A stretch of 64,000 bases of DNA from Bacteroidota bacterium (GTDB lineage: Bacteria > Bacteroidota > Bacteroidia > Chitinophagales > Saprospiraceae), in NCBI GenBank assembly GCA_041164265.1, contig JBEAPR010000067.1, positions 425-64,424 on the forward strand, written 5' to 3'. The notes below the pieces were generated by a model. The model saw nothing but the letters and a program-made list of their open reading frames with translations. It made no database searches and was not told the origin of the DNA. Shown one piece after another: positions 12,002 to 57,171 of this stretch (its first letter is position 1; every line of letters begins with the position of its first letter). Both the position numbers and the translations under genes were made by a program.

Positions 12002-13729
12002 TTAAGGGGCCAATATTTTGTTCAGAATGACCTTTGTAATGTCGTAAGTTGGGCGTACGCCATCCACTCCCAAACTTCCCGAAGCCAAAGTATGGCCAGT
12101 TTGAAGAGGATTATCAGACGCGTAATAGGCATAGCATATTTTGACGTCCTGAGGAATACTTTTTCTAATTTTTGAAGCTGCTTGAATAGCCTTTTGATAA
12201 TGAGCTCCTTCCATTTCAAGACCAACCGCTTTCCACGAACTCTCCAGGAAATATTTTAATATATCCTTATTTTGAAGAGATGTTCCCAATACGGTTATCA
12301 TAGGACCACTATATACGCGATTGGCGGACCCTTCAAAATCTATTTCATTTAGTTCGTTTTTGAAAGGGTAATTATCCGCTGTTCCCTCAAAAATATGGGC
12401 ATTAGGTACCATAATATCTCCTTTAACTCCTTCTAGAATTCCAGCTTTCCCCATGATAGATATGGAGCTTACCTTCAAGGCTAAATCTCCTTCTTTTGTT
12501 TGTACTGGTTTGATTAATTCGTCCATAGTCTCATAAGCCTGTTCGCCGAAGGCATAGTCCATAACTATCAGAAGAGTGTTCTCCATAATCGAGTGATTGA
12601 GATGGATTTCCTTATTGGGTTGAACGACTTGACTTAAATCAAAAATTTGAACTGATATATTTGTACCAGAGGTATCATCTAATTCGTACATACCATTTTT
12701 GGTTGCAAGGCTTTTAATTTTAGATTGTAACGAACCGGTTTTATCTTTAATAATTTCTTCCGCTAGGGATACAATTCCTAACTTGGGATAATCCTTACCA
12801 ATAGCTGCTTGAGCATATAAGCAATTCATGACTGAGTGAGGATTGGCAGAAATAATATGAATATTCTTGGAAAACCAATTTTTAGCTAATAAAAACTGAT
12901 GTATATTTTTAGCCCACTGTTCTCCGTAATAATGATGACCAACCCTATCCCTGAGAGCTGCTGAGAACCATATTTCACGATCTTTTCCTTCTAATGCTTC
13001 TTCCGATGATAGTTTACCTAAATAGTAAACTATAGTAAATAAATCATTTATTTCTCTGTCTGATTCAAATTTTTGAGCGGCAAATTTAGTTTCCTCAAAC
13101 GTTCGTCCAATTAAAGAACTTAAATAAGTAAGATCTATTTCTTTATTCCTTTCAGTTTGGTCTCCCTCTTGCACTCTCTTTTCAAGATTTATCCATTCTC
13201 GAGTTTTTCTCCCTTTGTGATCTTCGCTGTTGTTTCTAATTTTTTCTGCTTCAATATAAAGGTAAGTAAGGTGGGTAAGCACATCGTAAATGTCGCTGCG
13301 TCCTCGAGTCATTTCAATATACATTTGCTCTTCATCGACTCGATAGCACTTTCTCCTTCTTTTGGGTGGAATAATGGGCTTGAATTCAGTTTGTTCTAAA
13401 CCTTCTCGTGAAATTAATTTGATAAATCTGCAGGATTCTATTCCTTTAGGCAATCGCTGCATGACATATAATAGACCATCCAATTCAATTTTTTCTGGAT
13501 CAGATAGGCTCCCGTAGATTTCCGGTTGAAGGGTTTTAAGTGCTTCTACCATAGCTTCACCAGATATTCCTAATGGCTTGTAGCTACCTCTGATAAACAA
13601 GTGCCTCATTGCTATGTAGAGGCGCTCTATTGCGGATCTCGATATCTGTGCTTGAGTCCTATTGGGGAGTCCATGAATCGACATAAATATTATTTCGTAC
13701 AAAGATAGGGATAACCTCGAATAGGTCAC
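12002..13729 (-). CDS. Uncharacterised 575-aa protein; the C-terminal ~220 aa resemble the PNP/UDP nucleoside-phosphorylase fold (AMP-nucleosidase-like architecture)
   Basis: C-terminal blocks ISIMGKAGIL, DIMVPNAHIFEG and AVGLEMEGAHYQKAI resemble the G-x-x-G strand and the EME(A/S) block of DeoD/MtnN/Amn enzymes. I do not recognise the N-terminal ~350 aa. 12 nt downstream of feoB. Confidence 0.45.
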   Translation of the reverse strand: MTYSRLSLSLYEIIFMSIHGLPNRTQAQISRSAIERLYIAMRHLFIRGSYKPLGISGEAMVEALKTLQPEIYGSLSDPEKIELDGLLYVMQRLPKGIESCRFIKLISREGLEQTEFKPIIPPKRRRKCYRVDEEQMYIEMTRGRSDIYDVLTHLTYLYIEAEKIRNNSEDHKGRKTREWINLEKRVQEGDQTERNKEIDLTYLSSLIGRTFEETKFAAQKFESDREINDLFTIVYYLGKLSSEEALEGKDREIWFSAALRDRVGHHYYGEQWAKNIHQFLLAKNWFSKNIHIISANPHSVMNCLYAQAAIGKDYPKLGIVSLAEEIIKDKTGSLQSKIKSLATKNGMYELDDTSGTNISVQIFDLSQVVQPNKEIHLNHSIMENTLLIVMDYAFGEQAYETMDELIKPVQTKEGDLALKVSSISIMGKAGILEGVKGDIMVPNAHIFEGTADNYPFKNELNEIDFEGSANRVYSGPMITVLGTSLQNKDILKYFLESSWKAVGLEMEGAHYQKAIQAASKIRKSIPQDVKICYAYYASDNPLQTGHTLASGSLGVDGVRPTYDITKVILNKILAP

Positions 13730-13741
13730 CTAGAGGACTTG

Positions 13742-15871
13742 CTAAGAAAATAGGTGGTAGGTCAAAAGGCTTCCCAGTACTGCCAGTGCGGTCATGAAAA
13801 TAAATTGAATGATGGGCCATTTCCAGGAGTTGGTTTCTCGCTTGACTACCGCCAATGTACTCATACATTGCATAGCAAATACGTAAAATATAAGGAGAGA
13901 AAGAGAGGTGGCTATGCTATAAACTCGTTCCCCGGTGACGGGGTTTTTCTCTTTAATCATTCGTTCACTCAATCCTCCTGTATCTTCAGCGGAGCCCAAA
14001 CTATAAATCGTAGCCATGGTTCCTACAAATACTTCTCTTGCTGCAAATGAGGTAATCAGAGCGATTCCTATTTTCCAATCAAACCCTAATGGTTGAATAA
14101 CAGGCTCAATAGTTTTACCCAAAATTCCTGCATAAGAAGCTTCGATTTGATATGCAGCTATTAGATTTTCTTCTTCATTTTGATTAAAGTTTTTTTCTTT
14201 TGCAATAGAAATAGCCTCTTGTTCAGCTTTTTGTAAAGCATCTCCCGGTCCATAGGTAGATAATCCCCAGAGAATAACAGAAATGATTAAGATGATTTTA
14301 CCAGCTTCCAAGGAGAAGGACTTTACCTTATCATATACATTGAGATATAAATTCCTGAATACTGGTTTTTTATAATCGGGAAGTTCAAGCATTAAATAAC
14401 TTTCTTCATCCGTCTTCAAAATCCATTTTAGCAATAACGCAGTTGTTAGAGCGGCAAAAATACCTAATATATAGAGTCCCATAAATGCAATTCCTTGTAA
14501 ATTGAAGGGTCCAATTTGAGTGGATGGAATAGCAAAACCAATAAGTAAAGTATAAACGGGAATCCTGGCAGAACAACTAATTAAAGGGGTTACTAAAATA
14601 GTAACTAAACGCTCTTTCCATCCAGCTATAGTTCGAGCACTCATTATAGCAGGTATGGCACAAGCAGCTCCCGATATTAAGGCTACCAAACTTCTTCCAT
14701 TAAGGCCAAAATATTGCATTATTTTATCAAAAATGAAGGCTGCTCTAGCCATATAGCCTATTTCCTCCAAAATGGAAATTAAAAAGAAAAGAATGGCTAT
14801 TTGAGGTATGAAAACCAAAATACCCCCTAGGCCAGGGATAATTCCATCAGTTATTAAGTCTACTACCTTATTGGCAGGGAGATTGGTTTTTAATAAATTA
14901 CTTGTTTCAGTAAATAAATATTCAATCCCATCCATAGGATAAGATGCAAGAGCAAAAATGGCTTGAAAAACTAAAAACATAATTCCCAAAAAGAAAATAG
15001 GCCCTAGATATTTATTCAAAACAATTCGATCAATTAGTTGGGATCTTTTTTCAGATAGAGATATTGCTTTTTTGATATTTTGGGCAACTATTGGGGTAAA
15101 CCAATCATAGCGCGCCATAGTCTCTTTTACTTGAAATGGGAGAGGTTCAAATCCTATTTTGTTGGTTATTTCCTCGATCTCTTTAGAATTATTGGAACTT
15201 TTATCATAAAACCAAGAAGAGTGATGCGCCAATAAAAGAGCTCTATAAATACCTGGTTCTTTCAATTCCAGTTGAATTCTGGAAGCCACCTGGAGTTCTA
15301 TTGAGGATAATTTATAATCGGGAATGGGTGCCGCAAAAAAGGATAATTCTTTAATTATATTTTCAAGCCCTTCTTTTAACTCAGCCACTCCTAATCCAGT
15401 TCTGCTGCTTATGGAAAAAATGGGAACTGCCAAACTTCTTGATAAACCATCAACATCAATCTTCATTCCTTCTTCTAAGGCCTGGTCAACTAAGTTTAAA
15501 ACTAGTAAAATGGGGATTCCCAAATCTTTTAGTTGGCTAAAGAGCAAAAGGTGTTTGTCTAACTTATTTACGTCAGCAACATATACGACTACATCTGGGT
15601 AATTGGCAGCATGAGTATCCAAAAAGGTGCTAATGACAACTCTTTCGTCTTTAGTATTGGGGTATAGGCTGTAGGCTCCTGGAAGATCTAAAAGATTGAT
15701 TTTTACCTGTTGATTATTGGTCCAACTTCCTATTTTAAGCTCAACAGTAGTTCCGGGGAAATTTCCAGTCTTTTGATTAAGACCAGTCAATCGGTTAAAA
15801 AGGGTAGTCTTACCACAATTAGGATTACCTGCCAACGCTATATTAACCTGACTTCCTGTTTCTTTTGACAT
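13742..15871 (-). CDS. feoB: Ferrous iron transporter FeoB
   Basis: N-terminal G-domain GNPNCGKTTLFNRLTG, DLPGAYSL. Polytopic C-terminal permease with gate motifs. Confidence 0.95.
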   Translation of the reverse strand: MSKETGSQVNIALAGNPNCGKTTLFNRLTGLNQKTGNFPGTTVELKIGSWTNNQQVKINLLDLPGAYSLYPNTKDERVVISTFLDTHAANYPDVVVYVADVNKLDKHLLLFSQLKDLGIPILLVLNLVDQALEEGMKIDVDGLSRSLAVPIFSISSRTGLGVAELKEGLENIIKELSFFAAPIPDYKLSSIELQVASRIQLELKEPGIYRALLLAHHSSWFYDKSSNNSKEIEEITNKIGFEPLPFQVKETMARYDWFTPIVAQNIKKAISLSEKRSQLIDRIVLNKYLGPIFFLGIMFLVFQAIFALASYPMDGIEYLFTETSNLLKTNLPANKVVDLITDGIIPGLGGILVFIPQIAILFFLISILEEIGYMARAAFIFDKIMQYFGLNGRSLVALISGAACAIPAIMSARTIAGWKERLVTILVTPLISCSARIPVYTLLIGFAIPSTQIGPFNLQGIAFMGLYILGIFAALTTALLLKWILKTDEESYLMLELPDYKKPVFRNLYLNVYDKVKSFSLEAGKIILIISVILWGLSTYGPGDALQKAEQEAISIAKEKNFNQNEEENLIAAYQIEASYAGILGKTIEPVIQPLGFDWKIGIALITSFAAREVFVGTMATIYSLGSAEDTGGLSERMIKEKNPVTGERVYSIATSLSLLIFYVFAMQCMSTLAVVKRETNSWKWPIIQFIFMTALAVLGSLLTYHLFS

Positions 15872-15877
15872 GGAGCT

Positions 15878-16192
15878 TTATAGTCTTATTAATAAGGCAG
15901 CTGCTTCCCTTTTTCTCAATGCAATAATTAGGTTATCTGCTTTAATAATTAGTCCACCACCCCAAGGCGCAGATCGCAAAACCTCAATTCTTGAACCCAA
16001 TAAAACTCCCATTGAAAGTAATTTTTGAGCAATTAGTGCATTGGTGTATTCTGCTAATACTCCTATTTCGCCCGGAGATATTAGCGAAAGGTTTTTAAGT
16101 GATTCAACAAGTCCTAACACAGCACTAGATTTACGATTTGCAATATTCAATGCATGCAAACTAACTGATGTACGGGAATTAAATACTGACAT
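15878..16192 (-). CDS. feoA: FeoA-family protein
   Basis: SH3-like FeoA block LLSMGVLLGSRIEVLRSAPWGGGLIIKADNLIIALRKREAAALLI. 6 nt upstream of feoB. Confidence 0.8.
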   Translation of the reverse strand: MSVFNSRTSVSLHALNIANRKSSAVLGLVESLKNLSLISPGEIGVLAEYTNALIAQKLLSMGVLLGSRIEVLRSAPWGGGLIIKADNLIIALRKREAAALLIRL

Positions 16193-16316: not shown

Positions 16317-17048
16317 TTAGTGATTAGACTTACTTACAGCTAAGGTGAAAATAACCAACCCAAAACCGATTTTATTCACTGCATCACCAATATTGTATAT
16401 AATGTCTAGTGATTCAACTGGAAGGGCACCATCTAACCATCCACCAGGGATAGTCATATACCCAATTGGATATATAGCCCATCCGGCAAAAACAAACCAG
16501 CCTAGGCTTTTGAATGCACCTTGTAAAACGGGGTCATCTGAGTTAGATGCCAAACTTTTAGCGGATCCAAACCATACCTCATAAAGGATACCTACATATC
16601 CTACAGTAGAAATGATTCCCCAAAGTACAGAGCTATCTCTGTAAACAGTTTCCCCTAAATAACCGGCAACCAACATGAGTAAAGAATACGCAATCATTTT
16701 CCATAATAACCCAACTTTTGCTCCAAAAGCCTTGAGTATTAAGTAAAATTCTACACACATGAGTGGAACAGTTAAGATCCAGTCAATGTAGCGGAATTCA
16801 GTAGGAGAACTACCGTTTTCTGCCCAAAAACTTCTCATGTAAAAATAGTGTACTGCTGCAATTCCTGTAATCAATCCAGAAACGAGCATAGAGTCTTTCC
16901 ACTTTCCTTCCACTCTGGTCATTTGAACAAAGAAGAAAACGGTTGCAGCCAACATGGCCATAGAACCGATAAAGAATGTGAAACCGACATAATCGCCGGA
17001 TTTTAGTGATGCCAATAACATTGGCTTTAGACTAGATAAAACATCCAT
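16317..17048 (-). CDS. Proteorhodopsin, light-driven proton pump, green-tuned
   Basis: Helix C RYIDWILTVPLMCVEF gives the D97/T101/E108 (DTE) motif with Met at tuning position 105. Helix G DAVNKIGFG carries the Schiff-base Lys. Seven hydrophobic segments. The listed ORF starts at a TTG (17054); the ATG at 17048 is more likely. Confidence 0.95.
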   Translation of the reverse strand: MDVLSSLKPMLLASLKSGDYVGFTFFIGSMAMLAATVFFFVQMTRVEGKWKDSMLVSGLITGIAAVHYFYMRSFWAENGSSPTEFRYIDWILTVPLMCVEFYLILKAFGAKVGLLWKMIAYSLLMLVAGYLGETVYRDSSVLWGIISTVGYVGILYEVWFGSAKSLASNSDDPVLQGAFKSLGWFVFAGWAIYPIGYMTIPGGWLDGALPVESLDIIYNIGDAVNKIGFGLVIFTLAVSKSNH

Positions 17049-17163
17049 GGTCAATAGTTTTTGTTAATAATATTATAAAACTGTGTGCTAAACAATGGTT
17101 ACTATTTTTGGTTTAATTTTTATTATCAGTTTTTTCTTAATTTCCATATTTTATTTTTTATAA

Positions 17164-18096
17164 TTAATAAGGTGCCGATTTATCTTTGTAGAGTTGGTGA
17201 ATTAACAACATATGTGGAAGTGTGACCACCCCAATAAATATAAATAGGTATTTTAATATAAAAACGTTATCAAAAGATCCCCCCCAATAGATTAACCCTA
17301 TGATCGCCACCAAAGCCAAAAAACTTAAACCAGCGGTATTTTTTATGTAATCTCTCCAATTGTAGTTGGGGCTATTGATTTGAAAAAATGATATTTGTTC
17401 TTGAATACTGGTTAGCGAATGCCATCCGGCAAAATAAAAAGCAAAGCCCAACCATAATGGGAGTTGATACAGTGCGAAACCAAGAATGATTAAATTGAGT
17501 AATTCGTTAAATAAACTTTTTCGATTTAGAATGCTAAAAAAATATAAACTCATTATGGTGGCAAGAGTCAATACAGTCACTGCAACGATAATTCCAACTC
17601 TTAAACTTTCGGAAATTTCCCATGCTAGATTGGAACTGATAGCCTCAATTACAGGTAACGCTGTTTCATAATGAGCCATAATGGGAATAATCAATACAAA
17701 TGTTCCCCAGATAATATAAGTAATCCATCCTATAGTACCGCCATCTGGAAAAACATATACCCAATTGGATTGACCAAAATGGAATAGAGAGATTCCAATA
17801 AAAATCAATAACCCAATGGAGGGAAAGCTGATCCAAATAATACCATAAAGGGCCATAATAGCTAAATAACTAAGGTAGAAATGAATAAGCTTTTTGGAAC
17901 CTAAATAAGACTGTTTTAGGTTTTTAAAAATTAGATAATCAGTAGCCCCATGTGGAATTCCTAAAAAAAGAATAGCTATAAGTCCTAACCCAAAAAAAGA
18001 ATGGTTCATCCAATTCGGAACGGCATAAAGACCCATTATTAGAAGTAGTCCAAGCCCTCTTAAAGTATAGTACAGATTTGGATATTTTTCTGTCAT
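17164..18096 (-). CDS. blh: Brp/Blh-family beta-carotene 15,15'-dioxygenase (retinal synthesis)
   Basis: Polytopic membrane protein with LGIPHGATDYLIF and conserved His in later helices (LFHFGQS, GWHSL, LPHMLL). ATGA overlap with crtY. Confidence 0.85.
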   Translation of the reverse strand: MTEKYPNLYYTLRGLGLLLIMGLYAVPNWMNHSFFGLGLIAILFLGIPHGATDYLIFKNLKQSYLGSKKLIHFYLSYLAIMALYGIIWISFPSIGLLIFIGISLFHFGQSNWVYVFPDGGTIGWITYIIWGTFVLIIPIMAHYETALPVIEAISSNLAWEISESLRVGIIVAVTVLTLATIMSLYFFSILNRKSLFNELLNLIILGFALYQLPLWLGFAFYFAGWHSLTSIQEQISFFQINSPNYNWRDYIKNTAGLSFLALVAIIGLIYWGGSFDNVFILKYLFIFIGVVTLPHMLLIHQLYKDKSAPY

Positions 18097-19274
18097 CTCA
18101 ATTCTGACTTAGGTTTAGAAATAATGGGAAAACTAGGATTCTTAAAATATACCGCTGTTAAAGCTTTTAAAAATCTTATTTTGGGAAGGGTCGAAAACAA
18201 TAATATTTCTTCCAATAGGTTAGAGCGCTCATCAAGAAATTTCAAAATGATTGGAAAGGAATTCTTTCTAAATAATGCACTAAAGATAGACGAACTTGCT
18301 TCCTTTTCAGTAGTCATTAAATACAAAAGGAGCTTATCGTAAAATCTAAATCTCTTATTATTATATACTTTTGTAAGTCTATTTTTTGTAGGAGATAGTT
18401 GATTTATCAAGAAATCGCACCTTCTTTGAATGTTTTTGAAGGCGTACCCCGTAGTAGGTTTTACTGCCCCTGCAATAGCTCCTAAATTAATAATCCTAGA
18501 GCCTACTTTTTCTTTAAAGGTTGCATCTTTCATTGGAATGACTCCATGTTCCTCTTCTACTATTTCATATTTTTTTAGATTCCAAATCTGCTCCAAATAT
18601 TGTTTAATTTGAGAATGGTATACCGTTTGATGAAAAGTATTTTCAGTAAAATAGGTGCACTCCACTAATGCCTCATTATCGGACGTAGGCAAAACATACA
18701 TGAATGAAGGACCTTCAATCTGAGGAATTCTAAAATCCATTAGGTATACCCCTTTTCCTTTAAATATTGGTTGAGCTGTTTGGATAAAATATCCTTTGAA
18801 ATGTTGGTGAAGAGAAAAAGTAGGTTTTTGTTTTTCAAATCCATAGAAACTATTGAAAACAGTTTGGGCTTCAAATTTTTGACCGTCTGCAACTATATAA
18901 CCACTATGATCGGTTTCCCCTATTTCACTAATCCATCCTTTTATCAATTTTACGTTTGGGAAATTTTTTAAACGATTTAGTATATGTTGATAGAAATCTA
19001 GGCTTCGAATCATGTGGTATCTGAAAGGATTAGCAAGACCGGAAATAACCCCTTCACGATCAGCAAAATGTATATGGTCCCAACTTTTAGAAACCAAGGA
19101 TGCATACCAAGGTGTGCCTTTTTCCCAAAAGCACCAAGTTTTATCATTTATCTGGTAATCTTGTTTATCCACTAATAAAATGTCCTTCTTAGATAAATTC
19201 TGATCACTCAGCAGTCTATCCAACATACTTAATCCTGCACACCCACCACCGGCAATAATAAAATCGTATTTCAC
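18093..19274 (-). CDS. crtY: Lycopene beta-cyclase CrtY
   Basis: FAD fingerprint YDFIIAGGGCAGLSM. Lycopene-cyclase-family length, in context with blh and PR. Confidence 0.85.
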   Translation of the reverse strand: MKYDFIIAGGGCAGLSMLDRLLSDQNLSKKDILLVDKQDYQINDKTWCFWEKGTPWYASLVSKSWDHIHFADREGVISGLANPFRYHMIRSLDFYQHILNRLKNFPNVKLIKGWISEIGETDHSGYIVADGQKFEAQTVFNSFYGFEKQKPTFSLHQHFKGYFIQTAQPIFKGKGVYLMDFRIPQIEGPSFMYVLPTSDNEALVECTYFTENTFHQTVYHSQIKQYLEQIWNLKKYEIVEEEHGVIPMKDATFKEKVGSRIINLGAIAGAVKPTTGYAFKNIQRRCDFLINQLSPTKNRLTKVYNNKRFRFYDKLLLYLMTTEKEASSSIFSALFRKNSFPIILKFLDERSNLLEEILLFSTLPKIRFLKALTAVYFKNPSFPIISKPKSELR

Positions 19275-20195: not shown

Positions 20196-22730
20196 ATGCA
20201 AATTCAGTCTTTTGACGAGAATAAGGTATTGGATGATTTACATCATTACTTGCCATCTCAGTTAAGTCTCAAGGATTTTGTCCACCATAATCCTCTACAT
20301 AATTTTCAACATCTTTCTTTTTTTGATGCCATCTTTAAGGCCTCCAAAAACTTTGGATGTCAGGTTACGCTTTCATTGGAAGAATATAGGTCTTTGTATC
20401 AAGATGGTAGGATTCGCGATGAAATTCTGTCTTTCATTATTGCAGATCAGTATGAGGAAACTCAGGTATCTAATTGGCGATATAATTTGTTACAAAAAGA
20501 TTATCCATATTCCTTTGAACCAAATATTGGAGGAATTAGGTCTTTTTGGAAAAAGGTTTATCAAATTGATTTAGATAATCATGTCCATCCCTTACTCTTC
20601 AGATACATAGGTTCTTTTTTGGATCAAGGGGTAGCTTTATGGCATTTTCCCTTTGAGGACAATGGTTTGATTCAGGCGATAAGAGATTTAGATAGAAGTA
20701 GCTTCCAAGGAGTATTCAAATCAAAAAGGACCCGTGAATTGCTCCATCAGAATCATTTAAGTATTAAGCATTTACTTGATTTAGTGGTTGGGGACCCTGA
20801 GGCCTATAGCAATTACTTATTGGATCAACAATTTGCCCATCGAGGTTGGAGTGGATTATTTGCTGCTACTGAATCTTCACCTGAGACTCTTTTTTACAGA
20901 AAGAAAAGCAGCCTCAAGGATTTAATCCTTTTTGAATTATTAATGGAATTGGATGTTCTTGATTCAAATTTAGATAAACAATGGAAGCCGTTGGGAAAAG
21001 CTATCCAACTCCCCAAAATCAAATATTTTGAAAATCATCATTTAACCGAACTAGAAACTGTACTTTCCATTTGGCAACGAGCTTTTGAATGGGATTATTA
21101 CGATGAGGTTTTGGCTGGGATTCAAACTGCTGCAAAAATACCCAGGAAATCCTCTCATAAAGTTAGTTTTCAATCGGTATTTTGTATCGATGATCGAGAA
21201 TGCTCTATTCGACGACATTTTGAAAAAGTTGATAAAAATTGTCAAACTTATGGAGCCCCGGGCTTTTTTGGAGCTGCTTTTTACTTCCAACCACAAGGTG
21301 GAAAGTTTTACGAAAAAAACTGTCCGGTTCCCGTAACCCCCAAACATCTTATAAAAGAATACGATGTAAAGGATAAACAAAAGCATGAATTGCTTCATCA
21401 TCCAAGGACTCACACCGTAATAAGTGGATTTTTTGCTTCTTTATCTATTGGGTTGTGGGCTGCTGTCCGGATGGTATACGATTTATTTTTTCCAAAAATG
21501 AGGCCAGATATTTCCAATGCATTTGCCCATATGAATCGTTATGGTCAATTGAAGATTGAAAATGATTCTTTAGATGACCTTGAAAATGGCCTTCAAGTAG
21601 GTTATACCATAGAGGAAATGGCAAATGTTGTAGAAGGTATTCTCCAAGGAATAGGACTTACAGAGGATTTTGCCCCTATAGTCTATATAATAGCTCATGG
21701 GAGTAGTAGTGCTAATAACCCTCACCATGGTGCCCATGATTGTGGGGCTTGTAGTGGTCGTCCGGGAGCAGTTAATGCAAGAGTATTTGCCTTTATGGCC
21801 AATCATTCAAAGGTCAGAAGTATATTAGAAGATAGAGGGATTTCCATTCCTTCTGTTACATGGTTTGTCGGAGCTATGCATGATACTGCTAGCGATGAAA
21901 TAGCCTATTATGATTTGAATGATTTGAACGAGAACTCTTTGAGGCATCATCTAGAAAATGTGCCTAGTATAGAGTTAGCTTTGGACTTTAATGCCAAGGA
22001 ACGATCTAGAAGATTTGCTTCCATAAATACCAATTCGGACTTAAAGCGGATAAGGAAGGCCATAAAAAATCGCTCAGTATCATACTTTGAACCTAGACCG
22101 GAATTAGGACATGGAACGAACTCCATTTGTCTAGTAGGTAATCGGGAGACTACTAAATCTTTAGTTTTAGATAGGAGGGCTTTTTTACAATCCTATGATC
22201 CATTTTCTGATCCAAAAGGAATCATTCTTGCTAAAATTTTAGGTCCATTACCAGTGGTATGCGGTGGGATCAACCTAGAATACTATTTCTCTAGAATGGA
22301 TGTGGAAAGAATGGGAGCTGGAACGAAATTGCCCCACCATGTCATGGGATTGGTTGGCGTTTCCAATAGTAGCGATGGAGATTTAAGACCTGGTCTTCCT
22401 CTTCAAATGATAGAGAATCACGATCCCGTTCGCCTGGTCATGATTATAGAACAATCGCCATTAATCGTGGAAAATATACTTAATAGTACCCCCTCCATGA
22501 AAGAATGGTTTAGTAACGAATGGATATTCTTATTCGCCCTTAATCCTTCAGATCATTCACTGCACAGATATAAGGGTAACCAATTTTATCCCTATCAAAC
22601 GCTTAAAAAAATTGAGGCGCAAAAGGGAGATTTCATCAAACAGGTTGAGAGAAAGGATAGTATGAAAACAAATCATATTCTCGATGCAACCAAAGAAAAT
22701 TTACCCGTATATGTTTATGAACATGAATAA
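20196..22730 (+). CDS. dabA: DUF2309-family protein, DabA-type subunit of an energy-coupled CO2-hydrating inorganic carbon pump
   Basis: Size (844 aa). N-terminal FVHHNPLH block. FCIDDRECS (Cys330/Asp332). IAHGSSSANNPHHGAHDCGAC (His501...Cys516). INLEYYFS near the C-terminus. Overlaps the start of a NuoL-like gene. Confidence 0.85.
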   Translation: MQIQSFDENKVLDDLHHYLPSQLSLKDFVHHNPLHNFQHLSFFDAIFKASKNFGCQVTLSLEEYRSLYQDGRIRDEILSFIIADQYEETQVSNWRYNLLQKDYPYSFEPNIGGIRSFWKKVYQIDLDNHVHPLLFRYIGSFLDQGVALWHFPFEDNGLIQAIRDLDRSSFQGVFKSKRTRELLHQNHLSIKHLLDLVVGDPEAYSNYLLDQQFAHRGWSGLFAATESSPETLFYRKKSSLKDLILFELLMELDVLDSNLDKQWKPLGKAIQLPKIKYFENHHLTELETVLSIWQRAFEWDYYDEVLAGIQTAAKIPRKSSHKVSFQSVFCIDDRECSIRRHFEKVDKNCQTYGAPGFFGAAFYFQPQGGKFYEKNCPVPVTPKHLIKEYDVKDKQKHELLHHPRTHTVISGFFASLSIGLWAAVRMVYDLFFPKMRPDISNAFAHMNRYGQLKIENDSLDDLENGLQVGYTIEEMANVVEGILQGIGLTEDFAPIVYIIAHGSSSANNPHHGAHDCGACSGRPGAVNARVFAFMANHSKVRSILEDRGISIPSVTWFVGAMHDTASDEIAYYDLNDLNENSLRHHLENVPSIELALDFNAKERSRRFASINTNSDLKRIRKAIKNRSVSYFEPRPELGHGTNSICLVGNRETTKSLVLDRRAFLQSYDPFSDPKGIILAKILGPLPVVCGGINLEYYFSRMDVERMGAGTKLPHHVMGLVGVSNSSDGDLRPGLPLQMIENHDPVRLVMIIEQSPLIVENILNSTPSMKEWFSNEWIFLFALNPSDHSLHRYKGNQFYPYQTLKKIEAQKGDFIKQVERKDSMKTNHILDATKENLPVYVYEHE

Positions 22731-24591
22731 TTTAATTCCGCTTTTACCGCTATTACCCCTAACTGCACTGCTGATAGGTTTTTTATTTCACAACACCCGA
22801 GAAAAAGAAATTTATCGGGCTAATCTTGCTGGTATTGGATTTAACTTGATAATAATAATAATTCTATTTATTCAATGGATTTTTCAAGATAAGGTCCCTC
22901 TTTCGCATAAAGGAATACTTCTTTACCAAACTAGTTTGGATGCTATTGATATGTCTTTTTATATAGATGGCTATGGATTCGTTTTCCTATTTAGTGCAAC
23001 TATTTTAACATTACTTATTGTAGTTTTTAGCAAAACCTATTTGCACCGAGAACCAGGATATAAGCGTTTTTTCAATAATTTAAAGGCATTTTATGCTGGA
23101 CTAATCACCATTATTATAGCCGCCAATTTTGAAACCTTATTTATTGGATGGGAAATTCTTGGCATAACATCCTTTTTCTTAATCGGGTTTTACCGGGACC
23201 GGTATATTCCAGTTAAAAATGCACTTAAGGTAGTCTCCTTATATAGAATTGCAGATGTCTCTCTATTATTAGTCATGTGGGAGGCTCATCACCTATTTCA
23301 AGGAAGTATTCGCTTCGAAGAACTTTCTTCTGCATTAGCTGGAATGGATACTAATATTGAATTTAATAGTGGATTATTGCTTATTTCAATCTTAGTAATT
23401 TTGGCCGCTGTAGTTAAATCAGCTCAATTTCCATTTTCTAGTTGGTTGCCCAGAGCAATGGAAGGTCCAACCTCATCAAGTGCTATTTTTTATGGGGCAC
23501 TTTCTGTACATATTGGCTTGCTATTGTTAATTAGGACTGGCCCCATTTGGGAGGGTATACCTTCGGTAAAAGCCCTCATTATGGGAATCGGTTTAGTAAC
23601 GGTATTCTCAGCCACCTTGGTAGCTCGAATTCAACCCTCGATCAAAACCCAAATTGCCTATTCCACCATTGCTCAAATTGGACTGATGTTTGTGGAAATT
23701 TCCCTAGGTTGGTATCAACTTGCCATGTTTCATTTTGTCGGTAATGCCTTTTTGAGAAGCTATCAGTTATTGGTGAGTCCTTCAGTATTGAGTTATAAAA
23801 TTCACGATCAGTTTTTCAATTTTATACGACCGCAACCCCAAAAGAAAGAGGGATTTTTTAATCGACTTAAATTATCTCTTTACCTATTGGGAATACATGA
23901 ATTTTATTTTGATGAAAATCAATACAAATGGTTGTGGAGGCCATTAAAGAAAGTTGGAACAGCTCTTAATTTCATTGCTGCTAAGCAGATGATAAGCCTA
24001 GGTCTTCTATTGTTTTTTTTAGGCTTGGTAGGGGTTTATTCGCAACCCTACTTACCTGCTGGATTTCGATATGGGCTCCCCTATATATTTGCTATCCTCG
24101 CTCTTATGGTTTTACTAAAAGCATTCACCCTAAGAGGAAAAGTAATAGAAATTTGGGGATTGGTGATTCTCAATCAACTATTCCTCACTTTGAGTATTGG
24201 ATATAATGAATCTTTTGATTACAGTCAAATTCATCTTTATCTAAGTGGAATTCTCTTGAGTTTTATGATCGGATTGTATGTCTTTAGGAATTTAAAAAAA
24301 GCAGGATTAGCCACCGATCTTTCTACTTACCAGGGAAATGTATATGTAAAGCCAACCCTCGCATTTGTTTTCGCCCTGGCTTGTTTGGGAATGATTGGCT
24401 TTCCTATCACCCCAACATTTTTGGGAGAAGAACTCATTTTGGGACATATTCATTCTGGACAATACCTTTTAATGACGCTTATTATGGGTTCCCTTTTAAT
24501 AGTTGGATTGGTAATTTTTAGAACATATTCTCGACTTTTTTTAGGCATCCACATGAAAGGAATGCACATTCGTTCTTATCGCTCTGCTTAA
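22723..24591 (+). CDS. dabB: NuoL/MrpA-like proton-conducting membrane subunit, DabB-type partner of DabA
   Basis: About 13 predicted TM helices. NuoL-type blocks FIGWEILGITSFFLIGF, AAVVKSAQFPFSSWLPRAMEGPTSSSAIFYGALSVHIG and AYSTIAQIGLMF. The start is ambiguous (ATGs at 22711/22717/22723; the ORF is open from 22684). 22723 gives MNNLIPLLPLL and an ATGAATAA overlap with the dabA stop. Confidence 0.85.
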   Translation: MNNLIPLLPLLPLTALLIGFLFHNTREKEIYRANLAGIGFNLIIIIILFIQWIFQDKVPLSHKGILLYQTSLDAIDMSFYIDGYGFVFLFSATILTLLIVVFSKTYLHREPGYKRFFNNLKAFYAGLITIIIAANFETLFIGWEILGITSFFLIGFYRDRYIPVKNALKVVSLYRIADVSLLLVMWEAHHLFQGSIRFEELSSALAGMDTNIEFNSGLLLISILVILAAVVKSAQFPFSSWLPRAMEGPTSSSAIFYGALSVHIGLLLLIRTGPIWEGIPSVKALIMGIGLVTVFSATLVARIQPSIKTQIAYSTIAQIGLMFVEISLGWYQLAMFHFVGNAFLRSYQLLVSPSVLSYKIHDQFFNFIRPQPQKKEGFFNRLKLSLYLLGIHEFYFDENQYKWLWRPLKKVGTALNFIAAKQMISLGLLLFFLGLVGVYSQPYLPAGFRYGLPYIFAILALMVLLKAFTLRGKVIEIWGLVILNQLFLTLSIGYNESFDYSQIHLYLSGILLSFMIGLYVFRNLKKAGLATDLSTYQGNVYVKPTLAFVFALACLGMIGFPITPTFLGEELILGHIHSGQYLLMTLIMGSLLIVGLVIFRTYSRLFLGIHMKGMHIRSYRSA

Positions 24592-24622
24592 TTATTTAAA
24601 AAAAAATATAAAAAATATAGAA

Positions 24623-26209
24623 ATGAAAAATGAAGTATCTATGCCTGTAGAAGGCCTTAAAGGAATTAAAGCTCATTTTAAATCCGATTTTTTATCTGGT
24701 TTTTTGGTTTTTTTATTGGCACTCCCTTTGAGTTTGGGTATTGCAAAAGCTAGTGGATTTCCGGCTTCAATGGGTGTGCTAACTGCCATGATTGGAGGGT
24801 TAGTTTCGTTTATGAAAGTATCTCCATTGACCATTAAGGGCCCAGCTGCAGGGTTAATTACAATTTGTTCGGGTGCCATTGTAGCGATGGGAGGAAGCGG
24901 ATTTGAAAATGGTTTTATGGGATGGCATTTGGCTTGTGGAATAATTGTTTTCGTTGGACTTATTCAAATCGTTTTGGCTTACCTCAAACTAGGAAGCTAC
25001 AGTGAGTTCTTTCCAACCTCAGCAGTTCACGGAATGTTGGCCGCAATAGGTTTGATTATTATCGCCAAACAAGTACCCGTTTTATTGGGTGATGCACCCG
25101 AATTGAGCAAAGGCCTTTCTCCTATAGAACTATATACTCATATACCAGAATTTGTCATTAATGAAAATTTAACTATAGCCATTATAGGTGTGATTTGCCT
25201 TGTTCTAATGTTTGTTAAACCCTTGATTAAAGCATTAGATAAAATTCCAGCTCCAATGGTAGTTTTGATTTTTGTCATTCCTACTTCCTTAATCCTCAAC
25301 CTTAAAGCAACTCAGCCTGAATATATATTGGTTCATATTGGTAATTTTTGGAAAGATGTAACCATCAATGCAGACTTCTCTCAAATTTCAACCCTTTCAT
25401 TTTGGAAATATGTACTTATTTTCTTGTTTGTAAATTCCCTAGAATCGCTGTTAACGGTAAAAGCCATAGATGGTATAGATCCATTCAAAAGAAAATCTGA
25501 CTTTAATGGTGATTTAAAAGCGGTAGGAGTCGGTAATAGTTTGGCAGGTTTATTAGGTGGATTACCCATGATTTCTGAAGTATTGAGAAGTTCAGTCAAC
25601 TCGAATAATGGAGCAAAAACAAAATGGGCTAACTTTTGGCATGGAGTATTTTTGTTAATTGCCATGGTTTTCCTTATCCCCGTAATAGAATTAATTCCTA
25701 ACGCGGCCTTGGCTTCTATGCTTATTTATGCAGGATATAAACTTGCAGCACCAAGTACTTTTAGTCATGCTTATAAGGTGGGATATGACCAATTTGTTGT
25801 ATTTATTCTTACTGTTTTGGTTACCCTTTTGGAAGATCTCTTATTGGGTATAGCGGTAGGTATTATCACTAATATGATATTCCAACTTTACTACCAAACC
25901 AGTTTCCGAAATTTTTTCAAATTCATCGGCCTCATTGAGGAAAATAGTGAAAGTGCTAAGATTATTGTGGATGGATCTGCCACATTTAGTAATTGGATAG
26001 GAATGAAGAAATTAATGGAAAAAGTGGCAGATAAAACCTCTTTAATAATTGATTTTTCTTCAGCAAAATATGTGGATCATAACGTTCTAGAGAATTTACA
26101 TACTATTGAACACCTTTATGAACTAAATGACAAAAAGTTATTGATAGAGGGATTGAATCAATTTCAATCTATTTCTAACCACGAACTTTCAGGCAAATAC
26201 AGAAAATAA
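24623..26209 (+). CDS. SulP-family inorganic anion (sulfate/bicarbonate-type) transporter with C-terminal STAS domain
   Basis: SulP N-terminal block DFLSGFLVFLLALPLSLGIAKASG. Polytopic core. C-terminal soluble STAS-like ~100 aa. Confidence 0.85.
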   Translation: MKNEVSMPVEGLKGIKAHFKSDFLSGFLVFLLALPLSLGIAKASGFPASMGVLTAMIGGLVSFMKVSPLTIKGPAAGLITICSGAIVAMGGSGFENGFMGWHLACGIIVFVGLIQIVLAYLKLGSYSEFFPTSAVHGMLAAIGLIIIAKQVPVLLGDAPELSKGLSPIELYTHIPEFVINENLTIAIIGVICLVLMFVKPLIKALDKIPAPMVVLIFVIPTSLILNLKATQPEYILVHIGNFWKDVTINADFSQISTLSFWKYVLIFLFVNSLESLLTVKAIDGIDPFKRKSDFNGDLKAVGVGNSLAGLLGGLPMISEVLRSSVNSNNGAKTKWANFWHGVFLLIAMVFLIPVIELIPNAALASMLIYAGYKLAAPSTFSHAYKVGYDQFVVFILTVLVTLLEDLLLGIAVGIITNMIFQLYYQTSFRNFFKFIGLIEENSESAKIIVDGSATFSNWIGMKKLMEKVADKTSLIIDFSSAKYVDHNVLENLHTIEHLYELNDKKLLIEGLNQFQSISNHELSGKYRK

Positions 26210-26892
26210 TGAAAATCCGCATTTTTTCAATCATATTTTTATTCACTGGGATGAGCATCTATTGTTCAGGTCAAGATTTGGATGATGAATATATATTTGA
26301 CCAGACAAATACTTGGTTTTTTTTACTTAACAAGGTGAAAATTACCAATAAGTTGAGTCTTGAAAATGAACTCCACGAAAGAACAGGGGCTTTCCTTTCC
26401 CAACAGGGTACTTTTCTTTGGAGACCTTCTTTAGGTTATCATTTTCATTCCAAATCAAGCTTATCAGTGGGATATTCCTTATTGATTAATGAACCTAACG
26501 ATCCTAATCCTAAACCCCTTTTTCATACCATTGAAAATAATGTTTGGGAACAATTTCAACGGTTAGGTAAATGGAACCTGTCTCATAGATTAAGGCAGGA
26601 GCACCGTTGGTCCAATGGATTTAACAATCGATTTAGATACAGAATAACATGGACTCATTCTATTGGAGCAGGTCCGATTTTCATCAATTTATTTAATGAA
26701 TTTTGGATCAACCAAAAAGTAAACCTAATTCCAGAAAAATGGTCACGTAACTGGACCTATCTGGGATTAGGTTATCAACTTTTTGGGTCAAGTAATCTCC
26801 AATTGGGCTATATGAACCAACTCGATTTTATATCGGAAGACCTAAAAGTTATAACTCCTATCGTTCAAACAACTATGGTTTATAATTTTTAA
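26209..26892 (+). CDS. DUF2490-like outer-membrane beta-barrel protein
   Basis: Signal peptide. Alternating amphipathic strands. HRLRQEHRW block. C-terminal aromatic MVYNF. Start overlaps the SulP stop (TAATG). Confidence 0.55.
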   Translation: MKIRIFSIIFLFTGMSIYCSGQDLDDEYIFDQTNTWFFLLNKVKITNKLSLENELHERTGAFLSQQGTFLWRPSLGYHFHSKSSLSVGYSLLINEPNDPNPKPLFHTIENNVWEQFQRLGKWNLSHRLRQEHRWSNGFNNRFRYRITWTHSIGAGPIFINLFNEFWINQKVNLIPEKWSRNWTYLGLGYQLFGSSNLQLGYMNQLDFISEDLKVITPIVQTTMVYNF

Positions 26893-26916
26893 GGGGTCTT
26901 CCGCCCCCCCTATTTT

Positions 26917-27549
26917 TTATTTATAGGAATATATTTCAGATACTTGTTCTGTACTATTAACCGTAATGCCTAAATCTTTGATTAGACCAGTGTGGAGGTC
27001 ATAAACCCAACCATGGATATAAGGAAATTGACCATCTTCCCAGCTATCCTGCACAAAAGGGATGGTAGCCATATGTTTGACTTGTTCCTCTACATTGAGC
27101 TCTACTAATCTTTTGAATTTATCTCCTTCACTTGAAATCTTAGAAAGTTCAGCTTCATTCATCCTGTAGACATCCTTAATGTGTCCGAGCCAACTGTCAA
27201 TGTATCCAAACTTATTATGAGACATGGCAGCTTGAACCCCTCCACAACCATAATGTCCGCAGATAATTACATGCTTGACTTTTAAAACCCTGATGGCGTA
27301 ATATGCTACACTGAGCAAGTTGGCGTCGGTTCTAACTACAACATTAGCTATGTTTCTATGAACAAATAACCGACCGGGGTCTGAATCTGTTACTTTAGAT
27401 TCTGGTACCCGACTATCGGAACAGCCAATCCATAAAAATTCTGGTTGCTGGCCTTTAGCAGATTCCTTAAAATAATCCGGATCTTCTTTTAAATAAGTTG
27501 CTGCAAAGTGTTGGTTTCCATTCAATAAATCCTCAATTGTCTTTGCCAT
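26917..27549 (-). CDS. can: Beta-class carbonic anhydrase (cytoplasmic)
   Basis: Zinc-ligand blocks IGCSDSRVPE and ICGHYGCGGV. No signal peptide (MAKTIEDLLNGNQ). Confidence 0.9.
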   Translation of the reverse strand: MAKTIEDLLNGNQHFAATYLKEDPDYFKESAKGQQPEFLWIGCSDSRVPESKVTDSDPGRLFVHRNIANVVVRTDANLLSVAYYAIRVLKVKHVIICGHYGCGGVQAAMSHNKFGYIDSWLGHIKDVYRMNEAELSKISSEGDKFKRLVELNVEEQVKHMATIPFVQDSWEDGQFPYIHGWVYDLHTGLIKDLGITVNSTEQVSEIYSYK

Positions 27550-52644: not shown

Positions 52645-53505
52645 TTAGTAAGACCAGAGATCGTGTTCTCTATTAAACAACTCCCGCTTGATGCGATCGC
52701 TTTCTAACAAAATATCGATACCTGACATATAATCTTGAATTCTTTGATCAAATACGTTAGATTCTTTGTAGATATAGCTCGAGAAAAATCTCATTTCGAA
52801 AATGTCTTCCCAGGAAAGGGGAATGGCATCGTTACCAGAATTAAATACTCTTTCATTGGCTAATAGTTCTCTAGCATCAGGGTAATAAACCCAATAAAGT
52901 GGTTGTTCGTATCTGAACGACCCATCTTCGTTATTAACATCTTTGATTGGAGCAATGCCCAGAATTCGTACCTGTAACTTAGAGTAGTGTTTGTCGAAAT
53001 ACCATACTTCCTTTATACGGTAGCGCTTGATATCTTCGAAATTGATTTCATTGCGAACAATCTTAGTCTCTAATTCATAGGTTTCTGGATTGGTCGTAAT
53101 TAAAGTATCTACCGTTGCACCTAAAGCAATTACTTGTTCTGCAGAAAGGGGATAGGCAAATTTGTCATCTTCCGCACTATAGACGGTTAATTCTCCATTT
53201 TCAGCAGCTTCTTTAAAAATTTGAAAAAGCGGCCGCTGTGGATAAACGAATGGAAGATTCATTTTTTCTCGGGTATCAATTACCCTCCATATTCTTGTCT
53301 CCCACATAATATCCGCTTCTCTTACCGGCGAATAGGGTAGCAATCTTTTTTCACTTACTAATTTTTTCTCCGTAACGTCATTTAAAGGAGTTTTTGGTCC
53401 ATCTAATAAGGTACCAGACTCTAAAATGATGTTCTGAGCATCCTGTGCTATGGATGTCGAATTTATTAGTAAAAGGGCTAAAATAGAAGCAATTAAATAT
53501 TTCAT
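52645..53505 (-). CDS. gldN: Gliding motility / T9SS protein GldN (PorN)
   Basis: Signal peptide. Position directly after gldM. Conserved WETRIWRVID- and EVWYFDK-type blocks. Confidence 0.8.
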   Translation of the reverse strand: MKYLIASILALLLINSTSIAQDAQNIILESGTLLDGPKTPLNDVTEKKLVSEKRLLPYSPVREADIMWETRIWRVIDTREKMNLPFVYPQRPLFQIFKEAAENGELTVYSAEDDKFAYPLSAEQVIALGATVDTLITTNPETYELETKIVRNEINFEDIKRYRIKEVWYFDKHYSKLQVRILGIAPIKDVNNEDGSFRYEQPLYWVYYPDARELLANERVFNSGNDAIPLSWEDIFEMRFFSSYIYKESNVFDQRIQDYMSGIDILLESDRIKRELFNREHDLWSY

Positions 53506-53510
53506 GTATG

Positions 53511-55127: not shown

Positions 55128-55179
55128 AATTCTTTAATTTATTGGTTTTGCAAAAGCACAAATTTACTTGAGCTAGATA

Positions 55180-55785: not shown

Positions 55786-55815
55786 TACTTTATTTTTTAA
55801 TTATTAATTATTTCT

Positions 55816-57051: not shown

Positions 57052-57142
57052 ATCAATATTTAGGTTTTCCTAAGTGTTTTTTCAAATAAACCGCTAATAT
57101 AATTTGTTTGGTTTGTTTGAGGCAAAAAAACCTTGCACTCAT

Positions 57143-57171
57143 TCAAAAATTCAAGACGAAAAACGTCCTTG
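57143..57171 (-). terminator. Weak hairpin plus U-run between porP and gldK (possible attenuating terminator)
   Basis: Minus strand CAAGGACG-TTTTT-CGTCTTG (7 bp, one bulge) followed by AATTTTTG. Confidence 0.3.

Follow-up and report, generated by a model that had tools for sequence, protein, structure and literature searches.

A His-type DabA/DabB pair with SulP and carbonic anhydrase neighbours in a marine Saprospiraceae genome

In a 64-kb stretch of DNA from an uncultured marine member of the Saprospiraceae (contig JBEAPR010000067.1, positions 425 to 64,424; hereafter "the window"), two overlapping genes, dabA and dabB, encode a cytosolic protein resembling beta-carbonic anhydrases (beta-CAs) and a NuoL-type membrane protein. 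By sequence, their products form a genuine DabA/DabB pair at the Pfam level, and the catalytic centre of the window DabA reads as intact. The pair is not a typical DAB and can be placed in a deep, apparently unstudied lineage, designated here as "His-type", whose active site, as aligned, keeps the His of beta-CAs such as CsoSCA at a position where the aligned canonical DabAs have Leu instead. With a probability of about 60%, the pair and its neighbours are read here as a module for inorganic-carbon acquisition that would trap CO2 in an energy-coupled manner and supply HCO3- to bicarbonate-dependent carboxylases.

The occurrence of a DAB in a heterotroph is ordinary, established knowledge, and what is new here is a large, apparently unstudied class of DAB variants with a recurrent SulP fusion. 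DabA homologues have already been reported in genomes devoid of RuBisCO, with a proposed role in bicarbonate supply to biotin carboxylases (Desmarais et al., bioRxiv 10.1101/476713), and HCO3- supply by MpsAB was shown experimentally in the heterotroph Staphylococcus aureus (PMC6689103). Here, tblastn searches of PLSDB revealed DabA on 126 plasmids, many of them from non-autotrophic genera, the genera concerned including Phaeobacter, Leisingera, Pantoea, Haloarcula, Rhizobium, and Staphylococcus. Because DABs in heterotrophs had been reported and the role of MpsAB shown, the headline of a first-pass annotation of the window, a CO2-hydrating pump outside any autotrophy context, restates what was established. 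Likewise, its suggestion that the accumulated inorganic carbon feeds carboxylases in a non-autotroph agrees with the established pattern of the family but is not new (Desmarais et al. 2018, MpsAB).

The dabA gene and its zinc site

The following features of dabA are referred to below.

20196..22730, plus strand: dabA, 844 amino acids, cytosolic beta-CA-like subunit, assigned to the His-type lineage
21183..21197, plus strand: C330-I-D332-D333-R334, first zinc ligand and Asp/Arg dyad, aligning to C351/D353/R355 of Halothiobacillus neapolitanus DabA2 (HnDabA2)
21402..21494, plus strand: finger/elbow motif, about residues 403-433, membrane-inserting helices
21696..21743, plus strand: H501...C516 in HGSSSANNPHHGAHDCGAC, second and third zinc ligands with the NNP...DCGAC linker, opposite H524/C539
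22095..22112, plus strand: R634-P-E-L637-G-H639, variant of the DAB motif RPEWGL

The dabA product matched the DUF2309 family PF10070 over almost the entire profile (687.5 bits, E-value 3.5e-206, profile positions 2-747 of 747, cutoff 25), and the dabB product matched PF00361 (152.7 bits) and PF00662 (41.2 bits), which bears out the DUF2309 and NuoL-like assignments of the first-pass annotation. Searches against the solved H. neapolitanus DabA2/DabB2 (PDB 9rd0) matched the window protein to DabA2 (9rd0_A) with E-values of 8.4e-59 by phmmer and 7.4e-102 by profile. In the phmmer alignment, residues C330/D332/R334/H501/C516 stand opposite C351/D353/R355/H524/C539 of 9rd0_A, and the Halothiobacillus zinc-site numbering of the first-pass annotation (C351/D353/H524/C539) is therefore right. 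Within the motif FCIDDRECS, C330 is encoded by nucleotides 21183-21185 and D332 by nucleotides 21189-21191, while H501 and C516 are found 15 residues apart in IAHGSSSANNPHHGAHDCGAC.

To place this protein among its relatives, an exhaustive HMMER search was run over 1.84 billion representatives, and the best 142 clusters of at least 700 amino acids (32-86% identity) were aligned. The resulting DabA alignment of 147 sequences is composed of these 142 nearest 50%-identity representatives and five canonical DabAs, namely S. pettenkoferi MpsB, the Phaeobacter, Thiodictyon, and Sphingobium proteins, and HnDabA2. The Cys, Asp, His, and Cys columns of the zinc site were invariant in all 147 sequences, and the Arg column was occupied by Arg in 145. 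Two further elements, the DAB-specific lid GI(A/G)GFFG and linker NNP....DCGACGG, were defined in the 2026 structure papers, which give the linker motif as NNPYESALDCGACGG (the linker is described in bioRxiv 10.64898/2026.05.01.722082). Both are present in the window DabA, as GAPGFFG and NNPHHGAHDCGACSG, with substitutions at variable positions. An AlphaFold2 (AF2) model of DabA (mean predicted local distance difference test, pLDDT, of 81.4) had CsoSCA 2fgy as its sole structural match, with a probability of 0.94 (Foldseek, with a PDB copy to 2026-04-08 without 9rd0).

Residues that set the His-type lineage apart

Beyond the zinc site, the window DabA departs from canonical DabAs at several positions. 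Where these have DW(xxx)RPEWGL, the window sequence is SYFEPRPELGH, so that W656 of HnDabA2 is replaced by Leu (L637) and L658 by His (H639). RPELGH was found in 118 of the 120 closest homologues, and the Leu658 column contained His in 142/142 representatives, as against Leu in 5/5 aligned canonical DabAs. Consistent with the latter, a motif search found RPEWGL in the plasmid-borne DabAs of Haloarcula, Salinivibrio, and Pantoea; a Nocardia plasmid DabA, with LCIDPR and ...LACGACGG, matched neither motif type. The first zinc motif also differs, with CIDDR in the window and CIDVR in the studied DABs (V354 column). Position 333 is Asp or Glu in 141/142 His-type sequences and Val in the five aligned canonical ones, two more plasmid DabAs having Thr or Pro there by motif check. 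In the finger/elbow motif, Glu444 of HnDabA2 is conserved in 5/5 canonical DabAs, whereas the His-type has Ala, Pro, Gln, Leu, or Phe (L416 in the window); the glycines G411 and G419 that anchor the finger are conserved in both groups. Finally, the L629 column of HnDabA2 is Leu in canonical DabAs and mostly Phe in the His-type, and the tunnel residues H684 and P704 (HnDabA2 numbering), kept as His and Pro in the former, are not kept in the latter.

Several of these positions have been studied in DAB2, in which DabA2 E444A/Q abolishes activity, W656R/C uncouples the system, and L658Q is inactive in vitro and remains dependent on membrane potential. DabA2 Leu658 was described in the 2026 structure papers as strictly conserved, with Leu replacing the Gln/His of beta-CAs, and CsoSCA is stated to have His where the His-type lineage has H639. 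The equivalence of H639 and CsoSCA H397 rests on these published Leu658/L825 statements, since a DabA profile search for CsoSCA, meant to align the two residues, gave no match.

Many His-type DabAs (representatives P0177-P0269) are extended at the N-terminus, reaching 900-1,300 amino acids, and have the motifs RPEYGH and NNPHESAHDCGACGG; named taxa among the distant representatives are Nonlabens, Rubritalea, and metagenome-assembled genomes (MAGs) of Cytophagia type. A search of the literature for a described SulP-DabA fusion or His-type DabA, or for a tested member of the lineage, found none in searchable sources, which is not proof of absence.

The membrane subunit

The following features of dabB are referred to below (TM, transmembrane helix).

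22723..24591, plus strand: dabB-like gene, 622 amino acids, NuoL-type fold, PF00361 and PF00662
23491..23493, plus strand: DabB Tyr257, which corresponds to NuoL H254 and HnDabB2 H260
23731..23757, plus strand: TM11 triad H337...N341...R345, which is H...H...K in NuoL and canonical DabB
24397..24441, plus strand: GFPITPTFLGEELIL (residues 559-573), TM12-like broken-helix motif with acidic E569/E570

The two genes are coupled as first annotated: in the junction cATGAATAAt, the ATG of dabB at 22723-22725 overlaps the dabA end, whose stop codon TAA lies at 22728-22730. Other in-frame ATGs are found at 22684, 22711, and 22717, the second of which is the start chosen by the gene caller in a 99%-identical contig (L001); every candidate start overlaps the end of dabA, and the N-termini of relatives (MNNFLPFF..., 622 amino acids) fit the start at 22723.

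The raw sequence of the dabB product is closer to NdhF/NuoL (153 bits) than to DabB2 (107 bits), and NdhF, NuoL, and ND5 head its matches in the PDB and NCBIfam (TIGR01974, 227 bits). Such matches would be expected if a NuoL subunit of complex I, or an Mrp subunit, had strayed here and its adjacency to DUF2309 had no functional meaning. This explanation is extremely improbable, and the candidate of a true NuoL was rejected. The protein fell far short of all the NCBIfam cutoffs that apply to NuoL, Mrp, NdhF3, and the 520-position PRK08168 model (TIGR01974, 227 against 407.5; NF005141, 225 against 556; MrpA models, at most 142 against at least 920; ndhF3 model, 104 against 589). In a neighbour-joining tree of 286 core columns with 200 bootstraps, from which Mrp and NdhF3/4 sequences were absent, NuoL and NdhF formed a clade with 100% support that excludes the window protein and its relatives; these were monophyletic on a branch of their own, canonical DabB and MpsA grouped with 65% support, and the order of the three groups is not settled by the tree. 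The earlier prediction of a DabB rather than a NuoL or Mrp partner thus stands as regards the NuoL/NdhF clade, but this Mrp-free tree gives no support for placing the protein among the canonical DabBs. The stray-subunit explanation is further opposed by gene context, with the overlap with dabA, the dabA-dabB order found in 81/82 loci (see below), and no nuo or mrp gene nearby in Pfam scans of the window, which took in its main open reading frames (ORFs) of at least 90 amino acids and left out short ORFs nested in larger ones. It is opposed as well by protein architecture, with no long lateral helix and a conserved insertion of about 50 residues after TM11 that is not in NuoL.

An AF2 model of DabB (pLDDT 83.5, predicted template modelling score 0.85) provided the structural side of this comparison. 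Its first 355-374 residues or so fit ND5/NdhF chains at 2.2-3.2 A, with a whole-chain root-mean-square deviation above 20 A, and its longest C-terminal helix has 27 residues. This agrees with the published description of DabB2, in which TM1-11 form a NuoL-like core and the long lateral helix is missing. When the C-terminal 268 residues alone were searched against the PDB, nothing was retrieved.

Residue equivalences were drawn from a MAFFT alignment of the window DabB with 12 DabBs of its clade, HnDabB2, three other canonical DabB/MpsA proteins, E. coli NuoL, NuoM, and NuoN, and an NdhF1 fragment. This alignment recovers the published mapping of NuoL E144/D178/K229/H254 to DabB2 I151/D185/K235/H260, and was trusted for this reason. 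It places Tyr257 at the position of DabB2 H260, a residue whose replacement by Ala (H260A) abolishes DAB2 function. In TM11, HnDabB2 H339 is kept as H337, while H343 and K347 become N341 and R345 (HnDabB2 numbering here follows the alignment's mapping of NuoL H334/H338/K342). The counterpart of DabB2 K235 is kept as K232, and the TM5 Glu, E144, is kept with R175, D178, and K232, giving both NuoL ion pairs, where DabB2 has I151 instead. Across a second alignment of 45 DabB homologues with 48-86% identity (A2), Tyr257 is invariant, as are E144, R175, D178, K232, H337, N341, R345, and E569. The invariance of this polar and charged set indicates strong purifying selection on a distinct group of intramembrane residues, and hence on an intramembrane polar pathway.

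A further acidic position was recognized near the C-terminus. The motif GFPITPTFLGEELIL, with the core FLGEELIL, aligns with the discontinuous TM12 of NuoM (MPGTGNFVGEFMIL, E407) and with FFSKDEIL of NuoL, and the helix is broken at 558/564 in the DabB model. All 13 DabBs of the clade that were examined have an acid at position 570, and those of the Saprospiraceae subgroup have E569; the motif is missing from canonical DabBs. This short-motif similarity suggests that a TM12-type acid has been retained in DabB. If so, canonical DABs may have lost the TM12 charge and borrow Glu444 of the DabA finger, whereas the His-type would keep the acid in DabB and dispense with the finger Glu.

Operon partners and conserved context

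Immediately downstream of dabB, the following features were identified.

24623..26209, plus strand: anion transporter of the SulP family, STAS-like at its C-terminus, PF00916, 173 bits
26209..26892, plus strand: DUF2490 protein with a signal-like N-terminus and C-terminal ...YNF, PF10677, 112.9 bits; its start overlaps the sulP stop
26893..26907, plus strand: terminator-like GC hairpin and T-run, directly 3' of the DUF2490 gene
26917..27549, minus strand: Can/ECCA-type beta-CA, cytosolic, no signal peptide, convergent with the operon, PF00484, 174 bits

Positions 20196-26892 most likely represent one operon, dabA-dabB-sulP-DUF2490. No terminator-like site was detected at the three gene junctions, the only other plus-strand candidates in the scanned stretch lying upstream of dabA, and the hairpin at 26893-26907 likely marks the end of the transcript. 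An Rfam scan of 15-29 kb detected no riboswitch or other RNA family, and a sigma-70 promoter scan returned fewer matches than shuffled sequences, the sigma-70 model being uninformative for Bacteroidota. From its sequence features, the DUF2490 protein is probably an outer-membrane protein. The beta-CA scored 229.6 against a cutoff of 251 for NF007756, and matched PDB 1ddz and E. coli Can (1i6o) with an E-value of 3.8e-63.

One scan of GTDB species genomes revealed 80 related loci (DabA 52-60% identity), nearly all from Bacteroidota, including Saprospiraceae, Lewinella, Chitinophagaceae, Fluviicola, Cyclobacteriaceae, Chryseolinea, and Daejeonella, with one isolate, Flavobacterium laiguense LB2P30; members of the clade come from seawater, lakes, and activated-sludge-type MAGs. 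Neighbouring genes were counted by iterative hidden Markov model searches with all ORFs of 82 loci, within 6 kb of dabA:

DabB: 81/82 loci, always downstream on the same strand
SulP: 71/82 loci
beta-CA: 48/82 loci, mostly between sulP and dabA
DUF2490: 19/82 loci
Proteorhodopsin: 1/82 loci (same species)

The commonest gene order is sulP, beta-CA, dabA, dabB on a single strand. The association with SulP extends to in-frame SulP-DabA fusions, which occur in five genomes (L012, L015, L016, L018, and L059), and about 25 of the top 120 protein clusters consist of SulP+DabA proteins of about 1,385 amino acids from several sources. One locus (L090) has on its minus strand a 726-amino-acid ORF in which SulP is fused to a beta-CA, in a genome that also has a SulP-DUF2490-DabA-DabB cassette, so that both kinds of fusion, SulP-CA and SulP-DabA, are found within one group of organisms. 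Many cassettes have two cytosolic beta-CAs (L017, L035, L052, L061, L073, L076, L080, L087, and others). The first type is Can-like, about 50% identical to that of the window, with CSDSR near residue 42; the second, usually between sulP and dabA, is about 26% identical to it, with the motif near residue 57. A periplasmic beta-CA that would feed CO2 to DabAB was considered and rejected, as a hydrophobic N-terminus was found in 0/61 usable beta-CA ORFs (61 of 63).

The recurrence of these partners bears on an alternative in which the proteins form a transport metabolon. DabA would then be a conventional, reversible or loosely gated CA that speeds HCO3- flux through SulP in either direction, and DabB an anchor or regulator, or a Na+-using subunit, rather than a canonical proton conduit. 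We regard this alternative, the strongest of the rivals, as unlikely, although a good part of the evidence suits it: the fusion of full-length SulP to full-length DabA in several genomes and to an ordinary beta-CA in the same group; a co-operonic cytosolic beta-CA, which suits an equilibrating system and is at odds with a disequilibrium pump; the beta-CA/CsoSCA-type His in 142/142 sequences; the loss of the coupling Trp and finger Glu; and Tyr and Arg in place of DabB H260 and K347. Other observations oppose it. The potential dependence of HnDAB2 L658Q indicates that a polar residue at this site is not uncoupling by itself; the retention of DabB in 81/82 loci, with its invariant charges, NuoL ion pairs, and TM12-type acid, is hard to expect of a mere anchor; and where an ordinary beta-CA is already present, as in many cassettes, a second plain CA would be redundant.

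The canonical loci retrieved from plasmids (L007-L009, L091-L094), which are mostly Leu-type, have a different organization, with dabB before dabA in 7/7 and a LysR gene upstream in 4/7 (Phaeobacter, Thiodictyon, Salinivibrio, and Pantoea). In His-type loci, dabA precedes dabB and LysR is absent.

As a side observation, DabA-DabB pairs with 53-54% identity to that of the window were also found in records labelled as Saccharibacteria, Peribacteria, Bacillota, or Methylophilaceae, most of them without SulP and CA. These are L064, L065, L067, L072, L078, L088, and L084 (CP025011.1, complete, "Candidatus Saccharibacteria bacterium YM_S32_TM7_50_20"). The presence of a module of Bacteroidota type in records labelled as candidate phyla radiation reflects either mis-binning or horizontal transfer.

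Proposed function and significance

In the inorganic-carbon acquisition reading, CO2 that has diffused in or been respired would be hydrated at the buried zinc site of DabA, with C330, H501, and C516 as zinc ligands and D332/R334 activating water. DabA would dock via its finger helices on the NuoL-like DabB, and ion flow through DabB would gate the reaction, such that HCO3- is released inside the cell. SulP may supply or exchange HCO3- across the inner membrane, and the DUF2490 protein may ease passage through the outer membrane. We infer in this way the catalytic activity and its direction, the coupling ion, the substrate of SulP, and the role of the DUF2490 protein from family membership, the zinc site, synteny, the SulP fusions, and the selection on DabB.

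Several observations weigh against this reading. Residues that are essential or involved in coupling in DAB2 are replaced (DabB2 H260 by Tyr, DabA2 E444 and W656 by Leu), as is the conserved L658; the first-pass annotation, which based its "probably functional" pump on the zinc site only, therefore over-reached. In TM11, Arg and Asn are poor proton carriers. The active-site loops of DabA (509-515 and 635-639) have pLDDT values below 50 in the monomer model. The SulP protein falls far below the BicA equivalog cutoff (NF050096, 106.2 bits against 880), and its PDB matches are equally weak to SULTR4;1, BicA, and SLC26Dg, so that its substrate is not assignable from sequence. The beta-CA is a further difficulty: according to Fan et al., MpsAB and CA "rarely coexist", and the presence of both "does not really make sense". 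Being cytosolic and part of the same cassette, the beta-CA would be expected to dissipate any pool of HCO3- that is pumped beyond equilibrium. Can-type (type II) beta-CAs are allosterically inhibited by bicarbonate and low pH, and such inhibition could possibly reconcile the CA with a pump.

Considering the set of replaced residues, coupling probably differs in detail from that of DAB1, DAB2, and MpsAB. A stronger version of this view, which we hold only tentatively and consider doubtful, is that the His-type is a third, mechanistically distinct DAB class, widespread in Bacteroidota and working physically with SulP. The His of DabA would then be ancestral and the TM5/TM7/TM12 charge set of DabB complete and NuoL/NuoM-like, and CO2 hydration may be coupled to anion transport or to a different ion instead of forming a proton-gated CO2 trap.

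A role in ion and pH homeostasis or membrane-potential handling was also weighed. In this scheme, CO2 hydration would give cytoplasmic protons, SulP would expel HCO3-, and DabB would move H+ or Na+, so as to acidify the cytoplasm or balance Na+ in alkaline, bicarbonate-rich water. DabB is indeed an antiporter-like subunit of Mrp/NuoL type; MpsAB was first described as generating membrane potential and rescues an E. coli Na+-transporter mutant; and a possible role of prokaryotic CAs in pH regulation was mentioned by Desmarais et al. The habitats of clade members given above would also fit. As the sequence gives no specific sign of that transport direction, no Na+/H+ antiporter or pH-stress gene is linked to dab in the 82 loci, and inorganic-carbon supply is the simplest reading of SulP, CA, and DabAB together, we consider this role quite improbable.

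Two 2026 cryo-electron microscopy studies base their models of a one-way CA on the seemingly strictly conserved DabA Leu658, Trp656, and Glu444 and DabB His260. The His-type lineage provides a large natural counter-example, with replacements at all four positions but with the zinc site and the DabB partnership preserved. Should the lineage still pump, the core of the coupling mechanism would lie outside these four residues; otherwise, it would show how the vectorial enzyme relates to an ordinary one, and what a SulP-CA "metabolon" does. From an ecological point of view, inorganic-carbon acquisition, if true, would provide abundant particle- and bloom-associated Bacteroidota with a dedicated uptake module.

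The host and the surroundings of the locus

Other features of the window are as follows.

12002-16192, minus strand: feoA-feoB and a DUF6909 gene, directly downstream of proteorhodopsin on the same strand
16317-17054, minus strand: proteorhodopsin, PF01036
17164-18096, minus strand: blh, PF15461
18093-19274, minus strand: crtY, PF05834
19460-19780 and 19844-20152, plus strand: two small ORFs of 106 and 102 amino acids, between crtY and dabA
52645-58161, minus strand: gldL-gldM-gldN, an FGE-sulfatase-domain gene, and PorP/SprF, a gliding/type IX secretion cluster

The host, an uncultured marine member of the Saprospiraceae (Bacteroidota), carries proteorhodopsin, and nothing in the window points to autotrophy. 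Its UvrA shares 100% identity with a protein from an NCBI MAG that is labelled Saprospiraceae, followed among named relatives by Phaeodactylibacter and Lewinellaceae (66-69% identity), and the same locus is found with 99% identity on a 272-kb ENA metagenome scaffold. The gliding/type IX secretion cluster confirms a Bacteroidota host. Pfam matches in the window include gldL/M/N, PorP/SprF, TonB-dependent receptors with CarboxypepD_reg, FeoAB, UvrA, and UvrD, and no RuBisCO, carboxysome, or other autotrophy gene was detected in the 64 kb by the Pfam scans of the main ORFs of at least 90 amino acids. The absence of an autotrophy context, as initially proposed, is thus true; what had been missed is the inorganic-carbon context formed by SulP, DUF2490, and beta-CA, with the proteorhodopsin cluster back-to-back.

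The retinal cluster proteorhodopsin/blh/crtY (16317-19274, minus strand) and the dab operon point in divergent directions, and the rhodopsin gene is followed by a strong terminator-like hairpin (16289-16259). The rhodopsin matched PDB 9jov (E-value 1.2e-82) and, as read from its translation, has the DTE motif of a proton pump within RYIDWILTVPLMCVEF, with Met at the spectral-tuning position. For proteorhodopsin-bearing flavobacteria, an anaplerotic uptake of bicarbonate that is stimulated by light has been proposed, and a module located beside proteorhodopsin in this genome would bear on light-stimulated anaplerotic CO2 fixation at sea. A functional link, with a light-driven source of proton-motive force beside its consumer, was nonetheless dropped: proteorhodopsin, blh, and crtY are found no more than 10 kb from dabA in 1/82 loci only, that of the same-species contig L001, and the adjacency is not kept in the 81 other loci.

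Both small ORFs 5' of dabA have a hydrophobic N-terminus, with one such segment at most. They were considered as DabC candidates and rejected, having no Pfam or NCBIfam match and occurring only in contigs L001 and L002, both of the same species.

Comparison with known systems

DAB2 of H. neapolitanus is the closest studied system. The window pair shares with it a dabA-then-dabB unit, PF10070 together with PF00361, the Cys/Asp/Arg/His/Cys columns, the GxxGFFG lid, the NNP..DCGAC linker, the glycine anchors of the finger, and a NuoL-like core of TM1-11 that lacks the long lateral helix. The two DabAs differ in overall similarity, which is limited to 201 bits over 650 residues, and in the replacement of L658 by His, W656 by Leu, E444 by Leu, and V354 by Asp, H684 and P704 not being kept. 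In DabB, Glu stands in place of I151 (as in NuoL), Tyr in place of H260, Asn in place of H343, and Arg in place of K347, and the 551 residues of DabB2 compare with 622 in the window, where a TM12-type acid and the post-TM11 insertion of about 50 residues are present. Context also differs, DAB2 being part of a carboxysome-based CO2-concentrating mechanism and the window pair lying beside SulP and beta-CA genes in a heterotroph.

DAB1 (DabABC of Thermocrinis albus and H. neapolitanus) has a similar buried, beta-CA-like zinc site, and CsoSCA was likewise reported as its nearest solved fold. Its motifs are NNPYESALDCGACGG and DW...RPEWGL, as against NNPHHGAHDCGACSG and SY...RPELGH in the window, where no DabC-like gene is found. 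CsoSCA itself (2fgy) differs in being soluble and shell-associated, with no membrane partner and no sequence similarity even by profile. MpsAB of Staphylococcus is, as here, a pair of DabA/DabB type in a heterotroph with a proposed role in HCO3- supply to carboxylases. Yet the MpsB of the S. pettenkoferi plasmid is of the Leu-type (CIDVR, RPEWGL, and finger Glu), its membrane gene comes first, and MpsAB is rarely found with a CA, whereas the window cassette includes one.

Vectorial CO2 capture by a NuoL-family subunit and a cytosolic zinc protein that hydrates CO2 is also found in the cyanobacterial NDH-1MS/MS' complexes (CupA/B, NdhF3/F4, NdhD3/D4), but CupA/B are unrelated to PF10070, and these complexes are redox-driven and part of NDH-1. 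Closer in gene context are the SulP-CA gene pairs and fusions reportedly described by Felce and Saier in 2004, and BicA, in which SulP is likewise tied genetically, and sometimes fused, to a zinc protein of CA type. They differ from the present system in two respects: the SulP of the window is no BicA equivalog, and the partner to which SulP is fused in the His-type lineage is a DabA, 844 amino acids long in the window, that comes with a NuoL-like subunit.

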